Below, in pieces: positions 5,291 to 42,338 of a stretch of DNA of 53,364 nucleotides (position 1 is its first letter; each line of letters starts with the position of its first letter). Below the pieces are notes generated by a model. That model saw only the letters and a list, made by a program, of their open reading frames with translations, made no database searches and was not told where the DNA came from. Source of the stretch: Acidobacteria bacterium RIFCSPLOWO2_02_FULL_61_28 (lineage in GTDB: Bacteria; Acidobacteriota; Terriglobia; 2-12-FULL-54-10); the NCBI GenBank assembly GCA_001767035.1, contig MEKR01000188.1:1-53364 (forward strand), read 5' to 3'. The translations under genes were made by a program, and so were the position numbers.

Positions 5291-5850
5291 AGCCTCGCTT
5301 CCTCCGCACTGCGACAGAGGGTCCTCGCACTCCAAATACCAATGGGGGAGATCACGATAAGTAACTAATATTAAATAGGTTACAAATGCATATTCCGCCG
5401 AAGAGCCAAACCGTCCGAAGGCGGGTCGGGCTTCCAGGAGAAACGGCAGTATCCTGTTAAGTATAAGTTTATCAATCAGATAGTTGGCCATCAGAGGAGT
5501 AGATCGGGGCCATTCGGTCTCCTTCTCGACTGTTCAGTTTTTGACATGCGGGGCAAACTCCCGGCGGGCAGGAGCCTCTTCCATCGCCTGGCCGGAAAGA
5601 ACCGAAGAGGGTGGTTTGTGGCCTAAACTACTAGGACTTCACCCCGATTTCCTCTTTTTATCTTCAAGAAGTCCCATAAGTATTAGTCCCAATATAGATT
5701 CTCTTTGGCGAAAGATTTTTTCGCTCCTGCCGCTTTGGGCAGGAGTATAATTGCCTCCGCTGTTCTCAGTTCCAGCGCGAACACGGCGAACTCATGCTCC
5801 AGCTCAACAGCAAGAAATAAGAAACTTTCTCGGTCTCCTGGGCGGGAAGG

Positions 5851-5878
5851 AATCCGAGCCGCGACCGTGAGGGAGCGG
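5851..5878. repeat. Palindromic REP-like element, family A (AATCCGAGCCGCGACCGTGAGGGAGCGG)
   Basis: Related copies at about 6016-6095, 6288-6312 and 24139-24238, and inverted variants at 9266-9292 and 44862-44887. Confidence 0.75.
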
Positions 5879-5903
5879 ACAATCCGGCCGCCAACGAGGA
5901 ACC

Positions 5904-8900
5904 ATGAGGAAAACGCCTGTCGCTGTTTGCTTCTCGTTGCTCGTTGTCGTAGCGACCATCTTCACGCAAGTCCCCAAAGGACAGGAGTCAGAAGTCAGGA
6001 GTCAGAAGTCAGAATCAGAGCCGCGACCCGTTCGGCAAGCTCAGGGCAGGCCGCAAGGGAGCGGTGGTTCTGAATCCGCGACCGTGAGCGAGCGGCCGGA
6101 AGTCGGCAAGCAGCTCGTTTTGGAAACCTACGGGCGATTGCCGCTGAGCTTTGAAGCGAACCACGGCCAGACCGACGGTAGCGTGAAGTTTCTCTCGCGC
6201 GGCAACGGCTACACGCTGTTCCTGACCGCGAACGAAGCAGTGCTAACGCTTCGCAGGAGTCAGGAGTCAGAAGTCAGGAGTCAGAATCAGAGCCCCGACC
6301 GCGAGGGAGGGGGCATTCATCCGAGCCGCACCAATCCGAGCAGTGCGCGCCTGCCCCGAGCGGAGTCGAGGGGTCAGCGAGTGGGCTATCCCCAGGTTAC
6401 GCAGATTCCCCCGATTGTCATCCCGAGGAGCGTTAGCGACGAGGGACCTGTACGTTCTTCACCATCTGTGCCATCTGCGAAATCTGCGGACCTGTACCGG
6501 CTTGCTGTGGATGAAACGGCGGTGCTGCGCATGAAGCTGGTCGGCGCGAATCCAAACCCGGCGGTAACGGGCCTCGCCGAACTGTCCGGCAAGAGCAACT
6601 ACTTCATTGGGAACGACCCCTCGAAGTGGCGCACCAACGTCCCCACTTACGCAAAGGTGAAGTATGAGGATGTCTACCCCGGCATTGACCTGGTCTATTA
6701 CGGCGCACCAGCCCCGGCTGGCCGGGGCCAGCGCCAACTCGAATACGACTTCGTGGTTGCTCCCGGCGCGGACCCACGCGCTATCACGCTCGACTTTGCG
6801 GGCGCGCAGCGAATGGAAATTGATCCGCAGGGCGAGTTGGCGCTCCAGACAAGCGCGGGTGAAGTCCGCTTGCACAAGCCTGTCGTGTATCAGGAGGTCG
6901 GCGGCATTAGGCAGATGGTGGACGGCCATTATGTGCGGAGGGGCAAAGAGGTCGTGGGCTTTGCGGTCGCCTCCTACGATCCGCGCCATCCTCTGATCAT
7001 TGACCCCGTGTTGGTTTACTCCACCTACTTGGGCGGGAGCGGCAACGACAGGGGCTTTGGCATTGCGGTGGATACTTCGGGAAACGCCTATGTGACGGGC
7101 GATACCCAATCGGCCACTTTCCCCGGAACCAGTGCCAGTTCCTTCCAGGCTGCTATCGACGGCGGCCTAGATGCCTTTATAACGAAGCTGAATGCGGCGG
7201 GCAGTTCCCTGGTCTATTCCACCTACCTGGGCGGGAGCGGCTCTACCAGTGGCAACGGCATCGCGGTGGATTCTTTGGGCAACGCCTATGTGACGGGCTG
7301 GACCGAGTCGGGCAACTTCCCCGGAACCAGTTCCAGTCCCATCCAGTCTGCTTTCGCTGGAGTCCAAGACGCCTTTGTGACAAAGCTGAATGCCGCTGGT
7401 AGCGCTTTGGTCTACTCCACCTACCTGGGCGGGAGCAGCGGAGAGAACTACCACCCACAAGCGGGCATCGCCGTGGACCCCTCGGGCAACGCCTATGTGA
7501 CGGGCACTACCTTTTCGAGGGACTTTCCCCTGGTCAATGCTTTCCAGCCCGCTTACGGCGGCAGCTGGGACGCCTTTGTGGCAAAGCTGAATCCTGCGGG
7601 CTCCGCTCTGGTTTACTCCACCTACCTGGGCGGGAGCGGCACCGACAAGGGCTTTGGCATTGCGGTGGATTCTTCGGGCAACGCCTATGTGACGGGCGGG
7701 ACCGGTTCGACCAACTTTCCCACGGCCAATGCCTTGCAGGCCGCTTTTGCAGGCGGCGCCCCGGATGCTTTTTCGGGCGCTGATGCCTTTGTGACGAAGC
7801 TGAATGCCGCCGGCAGCGCTCTGGTCTATTCCACCTACCTGGGTGGGAGCAGCGTCGACCAGGGCAACGGCATTGCGGTGGACTCCACCGGCAACGCCTA
7901 TGTGACGGGCGACACCCTTTCGGGCAATTTCCCGACGGCCAATGCCTTTCAGTCCACTCTTCGCGGCCACTATAACGCCTTTGTGACGAAGCTGAACGCG
8001 GCCGGCACCGCTCTGGTTTATTCTACCTACCTGGGCGGGGGCGCCGAAGGTGGCCACGGCATCGCCGTGGACTCCGCCGGCAACGCCTACGTGACGGGGA
8101 CCACGTTCGGTTCCACCGATTTTCCCACCGCGAACGCTTTCCAGGCAGCGCTTGGCGGCGCCGACGACGCCTTTGCGGCGAAGCTCGATACCAACGCTAC
8201 CGGCGTTGCCTCCCTGGTCTACTCCACCTACCTGGGCGGGAACAGCTTTGAAGAGAGATCTAGCATTGCGGTGGACTCCTCCGGCAACGCCTATGTGACG
8301 GGCTATACCACTTCGGCCAATTTCCCCACAGCGAATGCTTTCCAGGCAGCGTTTGGCGGTAGCACCGACGCTTTTGTATCAAAAATATTTTGTCAGCCCC
8401 CCAACAGCCCGCCCGTTATCACCAGTGTGAGCGGACCGACCAGCCCGATTGCGCTAGGCAACGCTGCGACCGTATCCGCAAACTTCACTGACGCTGACGC
8501 CCAGGACACGCATACCTGTACCTTTGCCTGGGACGATAGCAGCTCGAGCCCAGGCGCTGTTACAGAGCCGACGACTAGCATCCCCGGCCAGTGCATGGCA
8601 TCGCATACCTACGCCACCGCCGGTGTTTACGCTGTTGCAATCACGGTCACCGACAACAGCGGGGCCAGCGCCTCCACCACGTTCGAGTCCGTGGTGATCT
8701 TTGCCGCGAACGCCGGCTTCATTACCGGGGGCGGCTGGATTAACTCACCCGCGAGTGCTTATGCGGCCAACCGGAGCTTGAGTGGGAAAGCGAATTTCGG
8801 CTTTGTCTCGAAATACCAGAAGGGCGCGAACACGCCCACGGGTCAAACCGAATTCCAGTTCCCAGCCGCTAATTTCAACTTCCACAGCAGTGTTTGCGAA

Positions 8901-9155
8901 TGGCTGGTCGTGGCCGGGGCAATGGCGCAGTACAAAGGAAGCGGCACCGTCAACGGCGCGGGCAACTACGGCTTCCTGCTGACGGCGACTGATCGTCAAT
9001 TGCCCGTTGGCGGAGGGGTAGATAAGTTTCGGATCAAGATTTGGAACAAGGCGACCAACGCGGTGATTTACGACAACGTCGGAGGCTCAGACGACATAGA
9101 CTCGGCCAATCCGCAGGCGATCAGCGGCGGGAGCATCGTCATCCACAATCAGTAG
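5904..9155 (+). CDS. Secreted SBBP-repeat beta-propeller protein with PKD/Ig-like C-terminal domains; carries in-frame repeat insertions in its N-terminal region
   Basis: Signal peptide, YGRLPLSFEANHGQ domain, seven LVYSTYLGGS..GIAVDSSGNAYVTG..DAFVTKLN repeats, PKD-like HTYATAGVYAV. Confidence 0.9.
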   Translation: MRKTPVAVCFSLLVVVATIFTQVPKGQESEVRSQKSESEPRPVRQAQGRPQGSGGSESATVSERPEVGKQLVLETYGRLPLSFEANHGQTDGSVKFLSRGNGYTLFLTANEAVLTLRRSQESEVRSQNQSPDREGGGIHPSRTNPSSARLPRAESRGQRVGYPQVTQIPPIVIPRSVSDEGPVRSSPSVPSAKSADLYRLAVDETAVLRMKLVGANPNPAVTGLAELSGKSNYFIGNDPSKWRTNVPTYAKVKYEDVYPGIDLVYYGAPAPAGRGQRQLEYDFVVAPGADPRAITLDFAGAQRMEIDPQGELALQTSAGEVRLHKPVVYQEVGGIRQMVDGHYVRRGKEVVGFAVASYDPRHPLIIDPVLVYSTYLGGSGNDRGFGIAVDTSGNAYVTGDTQSATFPGTSASSFQAAIDGGLDAFITKLNAAGSSLVYSTYLGGSGSTSGNGIAVDSLGNAYVTGWTESGNFPGTSSSPIQSAFAGVQDAFVTKLNAAGSALVYSTYLGGSSGENYHPQAGIAVDPSGNAYVTGTTFSRDFPLVNAFQPAYGGSWDAFVAKLNPAGSALVYSTYLGGSGTDKGFGIAVDSSGNAYVTGGTGSTNFPTANALQAAFAGGAPDAFSGADAFVTKLNAAGSALVYSTYLGGSSVDQGNGIAVDSTGNAYVTGDTLSGNFPTANAFQSTLRGHYNAFVTKLNAAGTALVYSTYLGGGAEGGHGIAVDSAGNAYVTGTTFGSTDFPTANAFQAALGGADDAFAAKLDTNATGVASLVYSTYLGGNSFEERSSIAVDSSGNAYVTGYTTSANFPTANAFQAAFGGSTDAFVSKIFCQPPNSPPVITSVSGPTSPIALGNAATVSANFTDADAQDTHTCTFAWDDSSSSPGAVTEPTTSIPGQCMASHTYATAGVYAVAITVTDNSGASASTTFESVVIFAANAGFITGGGWINSPASAYAANRSLSGKANFGFVSKYQKGANTPTGQTEFQFPAANFNFHSSVCEWLVVAGAMAQYKGSGTVNGAGNYGFLLTATDRQLPVGGGVDKFRIKIWNKATNAVIYDNVGGSDDIDSANPQAISGGSIVIHNQ

Positions 9156-9391
9156 GGGAGTGGTGAGTAGTGAGTGGAGAGTAGGGGAAAACGGGGAACA
9201 GGGAACAGGGAACAGGGAACAGGGAAGAACAACCCCATTCCCCACTCCCTATTCTCCTAGATTGCCCGCTTGCTTACGCGCGCGGCTCGGATGATAAGAA
9301 CAGTGACGAGTGAAGAGTGATAAGTGACGAGCAGGGGAAAAACTCACTCAGCCTGTTCTTGCTCGTCACTCGACACTTGTCACTCATCACT
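9156..9391. repeat. Repeat cluster between convergent genes: (GGGAACA)n heptamers, a family-A REP (9266-9292) and an inverted (AGTGACG)n heptamer hairpin (9301-9391)
   Basis: Tandem gggaaca units; cagtgacgagtgaagagtgataagtgacgag ... ctcgtcactcgacacttgtcactcatcactg form inverted arms. Confidence 0.8.
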
Positions 9392-13228: not shown

Positions 13229-13278
13229 CTGGTAGCCACGGCGAGCGCTTTTCTCGCCGTGGGCTTTTTCTCAATACA
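13229..13278 (+). repeat. GTAG-type REP (family B), 50-bp direct repeat of 14401-14450
   Basis: ctgGTAGCCACGGCGAG-cgctttt-CTCGCCGTGG-gctttttctcaataca, 49/50 identical to 14401-14450. Confidence 0.9.
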
Positions 13279-14337: not shown

Positions 14338-14403
14338 GGCCATCAGGATGACAAGCCCCAGTGCCACAACGCCGACTTGGCGGTTCTGGCCCATACCTAG
14401 CTG

Positions 14404-14490
14404 GTAGCCACGGCGAGCGCTTTCCTCGCCGTGGGCTTTTTCTCAATACAACCCCACGGCCAATTGATACTGCCAATTGACCGTGGCTAC
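14404..14490. repeat. REP doublet (REPIN) upstream of the RAYT
   Basis: GTAGCCACGGC...hairpin...CCCACGG..CCGTGGCTAC: two inverted GTAG-REPs. Confidence 0.85.
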
Positions 14491-14508
14491 CATGCTATGA
14501 TTTGCAGC

Positions 14509-14949
14509 ATGTCGGGCGTGCATCGGCTTCGGCTGAGCGACCGAATTTTCTTCGTCACCGTGAATCTCCGCCGGCCGCTTCCGCGATTCACGGAAGCAGA
14601 GTTCCCACTGATCCTGGCGACTCTTGAGGAATCCCGCCGTCGGCTGGGATTTGCGCTTTGCGGATATGTGCTGATGCCAGACCACTGGCACGCGCTCTTG
14701 GGGCCTCGCGCCCCCCTCACGATCTCCCGCTTGGTCCAAGACGTGAAATATGTCTCCGCGCGCCGCTTGAACCGCCAGCGCCAGAGCCACGACCCCCTTT
14801 GGCAACACCAGTTCTGGGATCGTTTTGTGAGGCATAACAGAGAGTTCGGACAGCGACTCCATTACATGCACTTCAACCCGGTGCGAAAAGGCTTGGTGGC
14901 GAAGCCGGAGGACTGGCGGTGGTCCAGTTGCCGGAATTTCAGCTTGTAA
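14509..14949 (+). mobile_element. REP-associated tyrosine transposase (RAYT, HUH Y1 family)
   Basis: FFVTVN, GYVLMPDHWHAL (HUH), WQHQFWDRFVR, YMHFNPVRKGLV..PEDWRWSS; flanked by GTAG REP doublets on both sides. Confidence 0.92.
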
Positions 14950-15022: not shown

Positions 15023-15114
15023 GCAGCCTCGGCAATTTTGCTTTTCCAATTTGCCGTGGGTTTGTTCCCGGGGTAGAAAAACCCACGGCGAGATACGACA
15101 TTCGCCGTGGCTAC
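15023..15114. repeat. REP doublet (REPIN) downstream of the RAYT
   Basis: Degenerate GCAGCCTCGGCA..TGCCGTGGG followed by CCCACGGCGA..TCGCCGTGGCTAC. Confidence 0.8.
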
Positions 15115-15267
15115 CCATCCCCCCTGCGCTTCAATTGCTTTTTCCCTCCTCCGGTGCTACCTTAAATTTCTATGGGGGAACGGCACGATCTCCCCATTGC
15201 GCGTGGGATTTCGGTGTTTTGCTTCCATGTAGCAATTCTATAAATCCAATTTGGAGGGTAAACGAGC

Positions 15268-22821: not shown

Positions 22822-24663
22822 TTGCCGGACCAGTCTGCTTCAATCCGGCTGCCGCTGCGCGACGATGCCGATGCGCGCGTCGCGGAATTGCTGCGCAACA
22901 TTGCCGAAGCCTGCCGCCGCCAATCGAGCGAAGACTACAATCAATCGAACAAGCGGTTAGCGGAAGAATTTCTGGCGCAGATTGAGCGCGATTTCCCCGG
23001 CCGCTGCATAGCGCGCCGCCAGCCGATCCCGACCTTTCACATTCGTACCACGGACTCGAACTACATCTTCACCGTGCCGGGGCGCTCGGAGAATGAGCTG
23101 GTTCTGGTGGCGCACTTCGACACCTGGCGCGGGCCGGGGGCCGACGACAACACCACCGGCGAGGAGGTCTTGAAGCAATACCTGCTCGAAGACCTGCGGC
23201 GGGCGGAGCCGCCTCCGCTGACGCATACTTACATTTTGGCAGGGTCGGAGGAATGCGGACTGATCGGGTTCGTATCGCAATGCCTGCTCGCCGCCGGTTT
23301 GGTGGCGGCGAATCTCTCCTACCAATCCGGCAGCGTGATCGAAGCGCTGATCGCGCTGATTGCCATTCCGCTCGCCAAGTACCGCTTTGGCGTGGCCGGC
23401 TCGCGCGTCTATGTCCAGAGCCTCAGCCCGGACGAGCTGGCGCGGACGCAGGCCGTCATTGCCGTGGACTCGGTCGGCGAAGGGCGCATGTATGTCCCCA
23501 GCACGAGCCTGGGCGCCGATTTTGTGCGCGCCTTCATTCCGTTCCCCGGCTACGACCGCTTGAATGACTTGCTCGAAGAAGCCGCCCATCTGCACGGCAT
23601 CAAGTACAACCGCTTTCTCTCGGGCGGCACCACGGACCACGTCTCGTGGCTCGAAGTCAACAACAGCCTCCTCGATTGGGTTCGGGAACACCTCGGAGGA
23701 AAGAAAAAATTAAAGGTCCCGGCGGCGGCGCTCATTACGATGTGTCCCGGCAAGGCCTCGCCGTTTGTCTTTGGCGGCAAGATTCACACGCCGGCCGATA
23801 CGGCCGACCGCGTCTACCCCGAGCCGCTGCGCCAGACGCTCCACGTCCTCGACTACTTCTTCCACATCTTCGAAGGAGGCGCGAAACCGAGCGAGCCTCG
23901 CACGCCGGAGGACTGCCACTACGCCCGCCTCTACGCCGCCGGGAGCGAGACCTATCTCGTGCTCAAAGACGCCGTCGAGCCGAATCGCCGCAACCTGAAC
24001 ATGATCTACCGCGTCGAGGCCGGGATCACCGAGGACGGGCCAAACCGCGTCGCCCGCGTCCGCATCGGAGCGTGTGTTAGGTGGGGCGTGGAGACTTCGA
24101 TGGACGAAGAGATCGCAAACTTCCTGGCGGGGAAAGAAAATCCGAGCCGCGATTCCGAGCCGCGACCCACGGCAAGCCGGGGCAGGCCGCAAGGGAGCGG
24201 TGGTTTGAATCCGAGCCGCGACCGTGAGCGAGCGGTCCTGACTGCCTGCCGGCGCATTCCACTTACAGAAATTCACGTTGAAAACGGCCCCACGTTCTGG
24301 CGGCGGTTTGGGTTGATTCGGAGCCTGCGGGCGGCGGCGCATTCGGTTGTCGGCCACGTCGCGGAGTGGATGGGCCGCTACAGCTTCCTGATTTACTTTC
24401 TCGCCGCCTACCTGGTTGCGGAAGCGTTCAACATGGCGATGGACGCCGCGTTCTGGGCTTCGCCAGAGTTCGCCGTTCAGTTCTTCCGCTTCTATTGGGC
24501 GACCATCCCGTTCACGGTGGCCCTGGAATTCGGGCTGATTACATACCTCTTTGTGGTGGCCATTCCGACGGTGATTGACAACAGCTATCGGCATCTCAAC
24601 CGGGCCGACAATCTGCTGAGCCTGAAGCGGGCAAGAAAGCAGGGAGCAGGGAACAGGGAATAG
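22822..24663 (+). CDS. M28 family zinc peptidase with membrane segments; in-frame repeat insertion at about 24139-24238
   Basis: AHFDT, GADDNTTG, GSEECG, DSVG, TDH and IHTPADT metal-ligand motifs; hydrophobic helices. Confidence 0.75.
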   Translation: MPDQSASIRLPLRDDADARVAELLRNIAEACRRQSSEDYNQSNKRLAEEFLAQIERDFPGRCIARRQPIPTFHIRTTDSNYIFTVPGRSENELVLVAHFDTWRGPGADDNTTGEEVLKQYLLEDLRRAEPPPLTHTYILAGSEECGLIGFVSQCLLAAGLVAANLSYQSGSVIEALIALIAIPLAKYRFGVAGSRVYVQSLSPDELARTQAVIAVDSVGEGRMYVPSTSLGADFVRAFIPFPGYDRLNDLLEEAAHLHGIKYNRFLSGGTTDHVSWLEVNNSLLDWVREHLGGKKKLKVPAAALITMCPGKASPFVFGGKIHTPADTADRVYPEPLRQTLHVLDYFFHIFEGGAKPSEPRTPEDCHYARLYAAGSETYLVLKDAVEPNRRNLNMIYRVEAGITEDGPNRVARVRIGACVRWGVETSMDEEIANFLAGKENPSRDSEPRPTASRGRPQGSGGLNPSRDRERAVLTACRRIPLTEIHVENGPTFWRRFGLIRSLRAAAHSVVGHVAEWMGRYSFLIYFLAAYLVAEAFNMAMDAAFWASPEFAVQFFRFYWATIPFTVALEFGLITYLFVVAIPTVIDNSYRHLNRADNLLSLKRARKQGAGNRE

Positions 24664-42102: not shown

Positions 42103-42304
42103 GGCAGCCTAACCTGCGGCGGAACCCGAAAAAAACAGACTCCAGACAGAGGCTAATTGCAACCTGTTTGACTCCGAGTGAGGTTGAATCCACCGGCCGG
42201 CTGGGGGTATGATTTTGCTCGGCGGCTCAGGAAAAACCTGGAATTCATGACCTCCACGTTGGCCTCGCGGGGCGAGGAACCTGCGCGATCCTGGATTCAA
42301 AGTG

Positions 42305-42338
42305 CAGGTCCCTCGTCGCTACGCTCCTCGGGATGACA
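42305..42338. repeat. Free-standing palindromic element (family D, reverse of TGTCATCCCGAGGAGCGTAGCGACGAGGGACCTG)
   Basis: Reverse complement matches 6416-6450 inside the SBBP gene except for one indel. Confidence 0.85.

Follow-up and report, generated by a model that had tools for sequence, protein, structure and literature searches.

Blocks of short interspersed repeats lie in frame within an SBBP-type gene of an uncultured acidobacterium

Rickettsia palindromic elements (RPEs), given as about 150 bp in size (PMC10969869), are described as lying in frame inside genes as well as between them (Ogata et al. 2000, 2002; PMC10969869, PMC3733652). REP (repetitive extragenic palindromic) and REPIN elements are, by the published accounts, short, high-copy and mostly extragenic sequences that persist within a lineage and are often paired (Di Nocera et al. 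2013, PMC3733652; Bertels and Rainey), and GTAG/CGTC REPs have been reported wholly inside open reading frames (ORFs) of known proteins in several species (Di Nocera et al. 2013, PMC3733652). Here we analyse a window of 53,364 nucleotides (contig C188, MEKR01000188.1) from the metagenome-assembled genome (MAG) of Acidobacteria bacterium RIFCSPLOWO2_02_FULL_61_28, and describe an SBBP-type gene that carries two repeat clusters, made of 11 units from five genome-wide families: AGTCAGR heptamers, A (with variants A1 and A2), B, D and E. A unit that lies inside another is denoted by a double colon, as in A1::B. Among other known systems, the bacterial interspersed mosaic elements (BIMEs) of E. coli are extragenic, are built from REP variants, and bind gyrase and IHF, and the short tandemly repeated repetitive (STRR) heptamers of heterocystous cyanobacteria form many dispersed 7-nt tandem arrays. 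The interpretation that we consider probable is that blocks of intergenic-type repeats are tolerated, and translated in frame, in two flexible segments of a secreted protein.

Like RPEs, as far as the cited accounts describe them, the families in this gene are found both between genes and in frame in functional genes, where they add fold-compatible peptide, and they occur in many unrelated genes (36 here). The host ORF is intact across the insertions, with 0 stops in 199 codons and the domain DUF7948 on both sides of cluster 2. In contrast to RPEs, with their size of ~100-150 bp and strong dyad symmetry, the units are only 23-51 nt long and weakly self-complementary (fold z-scores of -1.0 for A1, +0.5 for D and -2.1 for A1::B), they are stacked as five-family mosaics, and the host is an acidobacterium that lives freely, whereas Rickettsia are obligate intracellular alphaproteobacteria. 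The likeness is one of organization. An earlier note on this DNA had proposed a Rickettsia-like process; this is largely right, with copies in at least 36 genes, but much of the apparent nesting consists of recurrent mosaic blocks, and the units are weak palindromes and differ from the repeats that flank the genes for REP-associated tyrosine transposases (RAYTs) in this genome.

The families also share with REP and REPIN elements that they are short, high-copy and predominantly extragenic (54-84% intergenic, depending on the family, against ~20% intergenic DNA); they differ in that no GTAG or CGTC end tag is seen in the consensus of A, B, D or E, and in that the RAYT genes here are flanked by another, GTAG-bearing repeat. 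Fixed combinations of short repeat types with constant linkers (A1::B-linker-A, heptamer-A, array-D-array) recall BIMEs, although the mosaics here lie in coding sequence and, unlike BIMEs, are not known to bind gyrase or IHF. STRR heptamers are matched by 545 dispersed, non-overlapping tandem arrays of period 7, 14 or 21 (297 of them intergenic), but the phylum and the unit sequences are different, and the arrays here are linked to repeat units of other kinds and are found within genes. Of the features of miniature inverted-repeat transposable elements, we find an inverted pair of E arms around D (73-81% complementary), a 10-nt direct repeat at E-right only, and no visible target duplication for B inside A. 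Of the features of phase-variable loci there is a 7-nt unit, but the arrays hold 4.4-5.6 units of two alternating variants, and the contigs of four sequencing runs list no length variants, rare ones being beyond what contigs can show. In-frame repeat insertion is already known, and this locus stands out by the dense pile-up of 11 units from five families and by its mosaic organization. A literature search found no paper on these acidobacterial families, which does not prove that none exists.

Two repeat clusters in a DUF7948-SBBP protein

The genome (3.86 Mb, 199 contigs, 60.8% G+C) belongs to an uncultured, free-living soil and groundwater acidobacterium. Among public genomes, the best related loci come from records with the title Terriglobia or Acidobacteriota MAG, and the stretch is present in runs from groundwater and soil metagenomes. 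Pfam recognizes DUF7948 (residues 83-369, E 1.9e-66), SBBP (E 4e-67) and PKD_4 (E 3e-09) in the 1083-aa protein. All 214 profile positions of DUF7948 are covered, yet they are stretched over 287 residues, so that ~73 residues are extra. The frame of the gene is open throughout 5904-6500, as the earlier note had said, without a stop in the 199 codons, versus 4-10 stops in the other five frames. Codon-usage scores per codon are -0.17 in cluster 1 and -0.10 in cluster 2, against +0.29 in the domain core and +0.21 in the rest of the gene, and the inserts therefore look non-coding in origin, which fits DNA that came to be read through later. Cluster 2 is internal to the gene whichever start codon is used, and because DUF7948 lies on both sides of it in one frame, the protein cannot be produced without reading through it. 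From these sequence features we infer that the inserts are translated.

Structure prediction with AlphaFold2 (residues 1-399, 54 aligned sequences) gave core blocks with a predicted local distance difference test score (pLDDT) of 80-98. Cluster 2 is located between the predicted strands 111-117 (EAVLTLR) and 205-212 (AVLRMKLV), and residues 121-203 have block mean pLDDT values of 37-57 and no regular structure except a short helix on the heptamer-coded residues. In this model cluster 2 would form a disordered surface segment between two beta-strands of DUF7948. Residues 1-75 have a pLDDT of 25-52.

The segment that holds cluster 2, measured from the end of the GYTLFLT motif to MKLVGAN, spans 101 aa and is the longest seen. 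Its median length is 41 aa both in database homologues (interquartile range 37-49, maximum 95; 71 of 119 delimitable) and in homologous loci (interquartile range 38-51, maximum 92; 108 of 160 delimitable), which bears out the claim that the repeats add peptide absent from homologues. Homologues from genomes without these families lack the same peptides; any of the five families is found at only seven of the 160 loci, and inside the ORF at five. The longest homologue segments are themselves built of repeat-type peptides, assigned by eye (SRDREGA, SRDRKGAV, SRARQQAV, GPLASARGS and SAPSAKS), and SAPSAKS recurs at the same segment in P0006, P0008, P0021, P0027 and P0033. Both paralogues in the same genome hold other combinations there, namely A1::B-linker-A2 on contig C164 and heptamers with A1 on contig C102. 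Period-7 runs of DNA occur in the segment at 5 of 108 loci, compared with 1 of 108 same-length controls. This segment has thus taken in repeat DNA more than once, markedly so in this lineage but only occasionally elsewhere.

Searches of 41 relatives at the level of whole genomes gave matches in 31, mostly in two pieces around the cluster-2 segment (query residues ~60-150 and ~200-399 where both pieces of one gene are listed); the match in genome G003 is a single piece, 64-399. There is no close ortholog among these 41 relatives, none of which is from the same genus, and locus L148 was rejected as an ortholog because the match was poor on inspection. Two other sites in DUF7948 deserve mention. 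A second loop, after '...AIRLAF', is empty here and carries SRARKQAV, SRDREGAV and other inserts in P0006, P0008 and P0063, and these A-type peptides indicate that more than one DUF7948 loop accepts repeats. At APAPAGRG (6704-6728), ~7 extra residues ahead of the conserved QRQLEYD are coded by a small G+C palindrome, GCCCCGGC..GCCGGGGC; extra residues are present at this position also in P0006 and in the C164 paralogue, and the site may be another repeat site.

The units of the two clusters are listed in Table 1, with borders from local alignment to the family consensus and heptamer arrays from the program TRF. Genome-wide profiles of 12-mers and of BLAST coverage show the clusters as sharp repeat blocks, in which single 12-mers reach 161 occurrences; the unique sequence at 6100-6250 and past 6500 corresponds to conserved parts of the domain, and BLAST coverage between the clusters falls to 0-6 hits. 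The five families that the earlier note had seen in the gene are thereby confirmed, with genome-wide copies far beyond chance, as are the two heptamer stretches, which TRF reports as period-7/14 arrays at 5982-6019 and 6254-6290. The 12-mers of the first array (H1) occur 20-52 times in the genome, and the second (H2) together with the adjoining A unit repeats 5982-6028 with 91% identity over 47 nt. In this gene the AGTCAGR arrays are one-sided and do not form the arms of a hairpin. The copies of A within the gene take up three different reading frames. An element had been claimed inside a family-A copy, and B indeed lies within A1 at 6014-6064; the related inverted copy at 6349-6373 turned out not to be free but to be nested itself, in A2. 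The D unit does sit between inverted arms, as had been noted, and the arms, E-left and E-right, are 9-mer tandem arrays inverted relative to each other. Free intergenic copies were recovered as well, for family A at 5852-5878, 9266-9288 and ~44862 and for family D at 42304-42338; the first of these is an exact match to a 27-mer that is present 19 times in the genome.

Table 1. Coordinates of the gene, its repeat clusters and their units in the window
Feature	Position	Strand	Description
SBBP-type gene	5904..9155	+	ORF, 1083 aa: N-terminal signal-like peptide, DUF7948, seven SBBP repeats, PKD
Cluster 1	5982-6098	+	117 nt, 39 codons
Cluster 2	6254-6490	+	237 nt, 79 codons; splits DUF7948
A1 unit	5852-5878	+	27/27 against consensus; intergenic, 26 nt before start codon, likely in 5' leader
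N-terminal peptide MRKTPVAVCFSLLVVVATIFTQVPKG	5904..5981	+	charged start, then hydrophobic stretch; putative Sec-type signal peptide, read by eye from the sequence
Heptamer array H1 (AGTCAGR)	5982..6013	+	peptide QESEVRSQKSE; TRF period 7/14, 87-100% matches
A1::B composite	6014..6064	+	49/50; family-B unit 6028-6051 (23/24) central in A1; peptide SEPRPVRQAQGRPQGSG
Short linker and 5'-shortened A1 (6074-6098)	6065..6098	+	19/20 over 6076-6095; peptide GSESATVSERP
Heptamer array H2	6254..6283	+	peptide RSQESEVRSQ
Degenerate A1 unit	6286..6312	+	23/27; peptide QSPDREGGG; third reading frame of A unit
5' fragment of A unit	6319..6332	+	first 11 nt exact (100%)
A2::B(-) composite	6334..6384	+	44/51; inverted B core 6349-6372; peptide NPSSARLPRAESRGQRV
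E-left	6388..6415	-	23/28; inverted copy of 9-mer array family E; peptide PQVTQIPP
Family-D unit	6416..6453	+	35/37; between E arms; peptide IVIPRSVSDEGPV
E-right	6464..6490	+	25/27; three 9-mers (ATCTGYGNN); peptide SVPSAKSAD
10-nt exact direct repeat GGACCTGTAC	6444-6453 and 6488-6497	+	brackets E-right only; unexplained
A2 unit	9266..9288	-	1 mismatch; intergenic, 111 nt past the stop of the gene
Cluster junction peptides			TLRRSQESEVR, SARLPRAESR, SVPSAKSADLYR

Repeat families, mosaic blocks and turnover

Families were defined from copies collected across the genome and counted with fuzzy patterns, and genes were called with a home-made codon-usage caller (coding fraction 0.80, leaving ~20% of the genome intergenic). 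Family A has a core of 27 nt, family B is 24 nt long and present in both orientations, family D is ~37 nt long, and family E consists of three 9-mers and often forms inverted pairs. We counted 121 copies of A1 (77 intergenic), 68 of A2 (45), 87 of B (47), 19 of D (16) and 25 of E (17). The A1 27-mer, allowing up to 3 mismatches, is found 118 times and a reversed control pattern 0 times. A units lie near a period-7 array in 33 of 189 cases, versus 104 of 2000 random intergenic positions. The main heptamer units genome-wide are ACGAGTG, AACAGGG, AAGTCAG and AATAGGG, and a 709-aa ORF on another contig (C182:12796-14922) has six heptamer arrays in frame. Among 13 further genomes from its taxonomic family, 12 contain family A, at 4 to 74 copies per genome; of 27 genomes from other families of the class, 3 contain it, at 1 to 4 copies per genome.

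The description of the repeats as palindromic is weakly borne out: only A1::B (z = -2.1) and cluster 1 as a whole (z = -2.2) fold better than shuffled DNA, and A1 and D are barely palindromic. Covariance models of Rfam 15 gave no match in 5700-6700 at E values up to 1, and only a tRNA in the whole window.

At least one internal copy is present in 36 genes, in each of which coding signal precedes the copy and at least 30 codons follow it. Pfam was run on 21 of these 36, and all 21 belong to recognizable families. The unit lies inside a domain or splits it in UbiD (233 residues on a 204-position match), in an amidase and in SelA (both matched in two stretches), and it lies between domains in ribonucleotide reductase, in an Lhr helicase and in a GlcD/GlcF-like protein.

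Many of the units form combinations that recur. A halves split by a B core number ~32 in the genome, mostly 47 nt (23 + 24), with B in both orientations; this central site of A can also be filled by other small hairpins, and B is central in D-like units as well. The block A1::B-linker-A is found at several loci, including 24157-24235 of the window and the C164 paralogue, and heptamer-A and array-D-array likewise turn up repeatedly in other parts of the genome. The copy at 24157-24235, a hairpin-split A unit followed by a linker and A1, is the same mosaic block as in cluster 1 and lies in a 613-aa ORF of the M28 peptidase family (22822-24663), ~120 codons after the M28 domain. Several D copies are flanked by inverted heptamer arrays. 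D between E arms was rejected as a common composite, because among the 19 D copies only one other has E-like arms, on the upstream side only; it has no ATCTGYG match downstream, where an E-like tail was seen by eye. Since A1::B, A1::B-linker-A, heptamer-A and array-D-array recur genome-wide, fewer insertion events are needed, and what entered the gene was probably a small number of mosaic blocks, not ten units one by one. The earlier idea of repeats piling up in tolerant linkers therefore stands for their in-frame location in tolerant segments, and not for a series of separate nested insertions.

A metagenome scan did not bring up the contigs of P0006 or P0008, and orthologs were compared at the level of protein, by BLASTP with residues 1-232. 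Over this region P0006 is 63% identical, and the alignment has clean gaps that coincide with repeat units and measure exactly 16, 8 and 6 residues. The 16-residue gap corresponds to the degenerate A1 with the A fragment, a stretch of 48 nt bounded by similar A-unit starts. The 8-residue gap, LPRAESRG, is exactly the B unit inside A2, and P0006 reads NPSRARQQAV, which is A2 without B; the 6-residue gap falls within the family-D unit. P0008 is similar to P0006 but has a different layout, with A1 read in another frame. These unit-sized gaps, together with the reading of A in three frames, indicate that whole units come and go while the frame is kept, and at 24 nt, a multiple of three, B adds exactly eight residues. 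The 16-residue and other differences also fit unequal recombination between adjacent A units. The clusters are 117 and 237 nt long, B usually measures 24 nt in intergenic composites too, and E has a unit of 9 nt; a bias of the inserts towards lengths divisible by three, however, is not separable from the open frame.

The genome also contains nine Y1-transposase matches. One of them, the ORF at 14431-14949 of the window, passes the NCBIfam RAYT model NF047646 (107.8 bits, cut-off 80). This ORF and the Y1-transposase ORF on contig C95, a putative RAYT gene, are flanked by a different repeat, which bears GTAG and whose 12-mers match the genome up to 180 times, and not by A, B, D or E. Around the RAYT ORF the GTAG-bearing stem-loops (14401-14442, 15047-15118 and 13229-13270; 12-mers at up to 178-180 copies) are on both sides and inverted, and together they look like a classical REP/RAYT system, separate from the families of the SBBP-type gene. 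A link of A, B, D and E to RAYTs was rejected, since the RAYT genes are flanked by this other family; one D unit is 1.4 kb from one Y1-transposase locus, and neither a GTAG nor a CGTC end tag was seen in the A1, B, D or E consensus, of which the stems are weak. A third Y1-transposase-like ORF (C183:8588-9535) lies amid yet other repeat families, with stem-loop 12-mers at 28-106 copies, and the genome thus holds at least three further repeat systems. The only gene in the genome for PF05635, the 23S rRNA intervening-sequence protein family (C192:17413-17727, locus L210), lies between directly oriented GGGAAYA heptamer arrays, and inverted arrays follow downstream; this heptamer family differs from that of the SBBP-type gene.

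The families of the SBBP-type gene may be mobile and selfish. B occurs in both orientations, always central in a repeat and without target duplication visible inside A, which would fit either a single-strand, hairpin-directed Y1-transposase mechanism or recombination. We have considered that B might be an active mobile unit of 24 nt that inserts in either orientation, without target duplication, into the centres of A1, A2 and D, those within coding sequence included, and that is moved on single-stranded DNA by a Y1 transposase (IS200/IS605 or RAYT-like) or by the heptamer-flanked PF05635 element; we regard this as quite unlikely.

Competing explanations

In the mechanism that we favour, short interspersed repeats (A1/A2, B, D, E arrays and several heptamer arrays), in which the genome is rich, would form mosaic blocks, mainly between genes. 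Some blocks would have come to rest in two sequence-tolerant segments, the linker from the signal peptide to the first motif and the surface segment between strands of DUF7948. Surviving arrangements would be those that lack a stop and keep the frame, and they may be read through as 39 + 79 hydrophilic, disordered residues. Later change would proceed by gain or loss of whole units, such as the 24-nt B in A2 or the 48-nt A-unit block flanked by similar A-unit starts. The repeat-coded peptide would most likely be tolerated rather than useful.

Several observations weigh against this interpretation. Shuffled versions of the clusters remain open with a chance of 0.30 (cluster 1) and 0.07 (cluster 2), and the public gene call, P0001 (1023 aa), begins at GTG 6084, downstream of cluster 1. 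The intergenic shares are approximate, as they depend on the home-made gene caller; some of the gene-internal B matches may be chance resemblance, and an aminotransferase and a Mur ligase hold units without extra length, where the match may be chance or replacement. The repeat units fold weakly, only A1::B and the whole of cluster 1 being better than shuffles, and no A, B or E unit is located within 1.5 kb of any of the nine Y1-transposase loci. Among the listed runs that contain the stretch there is no RNA run. Finally, the near-consensus state of family A in 12 of 13 genomes of the same family could reflect selection on the DNA or RNA itself, not neutrality.

Two of the alternatives concern what is actually present and read. 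If translation began at GTG 6084 or later, as in the public call, only cluster 2 would be coding and cluster 1 would be part of the 5' leader and might influence the structure of the mRNA or its expression; the non-coding-like codon usage of cluster 1, its folding relative to shuffles and the 30% of shuffled versions that stay open agree with this. However, ATG 5904 is preceded by AGGA at a distance of 7 nt and opens a protein with a typical N-terminus, charged and then hydrophobic, whereas no Shine-Dalgarno-like motif is found ahead of GTG 6084. P0006 and P0008, the closest two relatives in the databases, retain the N-terminus that begins at ATG 5904, and in both the frame runs on through the repeat block into the domain. 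The homologues compared have similar hydrophobic N-termini 25-60 residues ahead of a YGKLPLSFE motif; a protein started at 6084 would have no such N-terminus. Judged from the sequence, the start is very probably ATG 5904, and a start at 6084 or beyond is very unlikely. The outcome that the earlier note had named as refuting, a real start downstream of the repeats, agrees with the public call, is countered by the conserved N-terminus in P0006 and P0008, and is without consequence for cluster 2. It is extremely improbable that the repeat-rich stretches are chimeric joins, although the contig is one of 199 from a metagenome assembly and the repeats attract read depths in the thousands that stem from other organisms. 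Across 5856-6009, 6273-6445 and 6443-6616 the sequence is matched with 0 differences by unitigs of four further public runs (X3, X4, X5 and X7); one of these runs and a possible source run belong to one study. The region 6042-6280 is spanned by just one X4 unitig, with 19 differences. Unitig joints have short sides (20-39 nt) within repeats and were treated as cross-mapping from other loci or organisms. The exact matches, together with the same order of units in P0006, which is from another assembly, argue against a chimera, as does the frame kept across both clusters. No usable population variation was found in the unitigs of the four runs, and contigs drop rare variants.

The other alternatives concern why the repeats are there. 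They might be immobile, conserved DNA or RNA sites, for binding of nucleoid or regulatory proteins or for transcript stability, that are spread and homogenised by recombination or gene conversion and that entered the gene by exchange with the copies at 5852 and 9266. Near-identity of the family-A 27-mer in 12 of 13 same-family genomes, against 3 of 27 of other families, is consistent with this, as are the fixed mosaic blocks with constant linkers, reminiscent of E. coli BIMEs, the similar A-unit starts that bound the 16-aa difference from P0006, as in unequal recombination, and the lack of a transposase tied to these families. Nevertheless, dozens of copies at unrelated sites, including unrelated genes, require some way to reach new sites, B in both orientations at the centres of A and D units resembles insertion, and Rfam has no matching family; we consider immobile sites unlikely. 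Alternatively, the repeats may be kept for a function, either as slippage-prone heptamer switches, in which one 7-nt unit turns the gene off, or as rapidly changing surface sequence. Haemophilus heptamer repeats are in print as phase-variation switches, as far as those accounts go, and here a period of 7, not a multiple of 3, occurs in two arrays of one gene; the protein is also predicted to be exported, the content of the segment varies among orthologs and paralogues, and A is read in three frames. On the other hand, arrays this short and with two alternating unit variants are poor slippage substrates, most copies are intergenic, and the same families occur in the housekeeping genes for UbiD, SelA, amidase and ribonucleotide reductase, where switching would be senseless. 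Heptamer-number variants were absent from the contigs of the four runs, which would, however, drop rare ones. We give a maintained function little credence.

Implications

Tolerated insertion of intergenic-type blocks, which remains our preferred explanation, brings to free-living soil and groundwater Acidobacteriota a phenomenon best documented in Rickettsia, the in-frame colonization of genes by repeats of intergenic type. It explains odd low-complexity peptides in predicted acidobacterial proteins, such as SRDREGA, SRARQQAV, QESEVRSQ and SAPSAKS. Gene callers may trim true starts at such repeats, and the repeats are natural markers of protein loops that tolerate any sequence. The interest of the locus rests on the density of the pile-up, on its mosaic organization and on the clean 8-residue B difference between orthologs; this presence or absence of B inside A2 offers a concrete handle on the movement of tiny units. 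If B is indeed mobile, then B and the heptamer arrays together would keep providing many proteins in this family of acidobacteria with new loop sequence.

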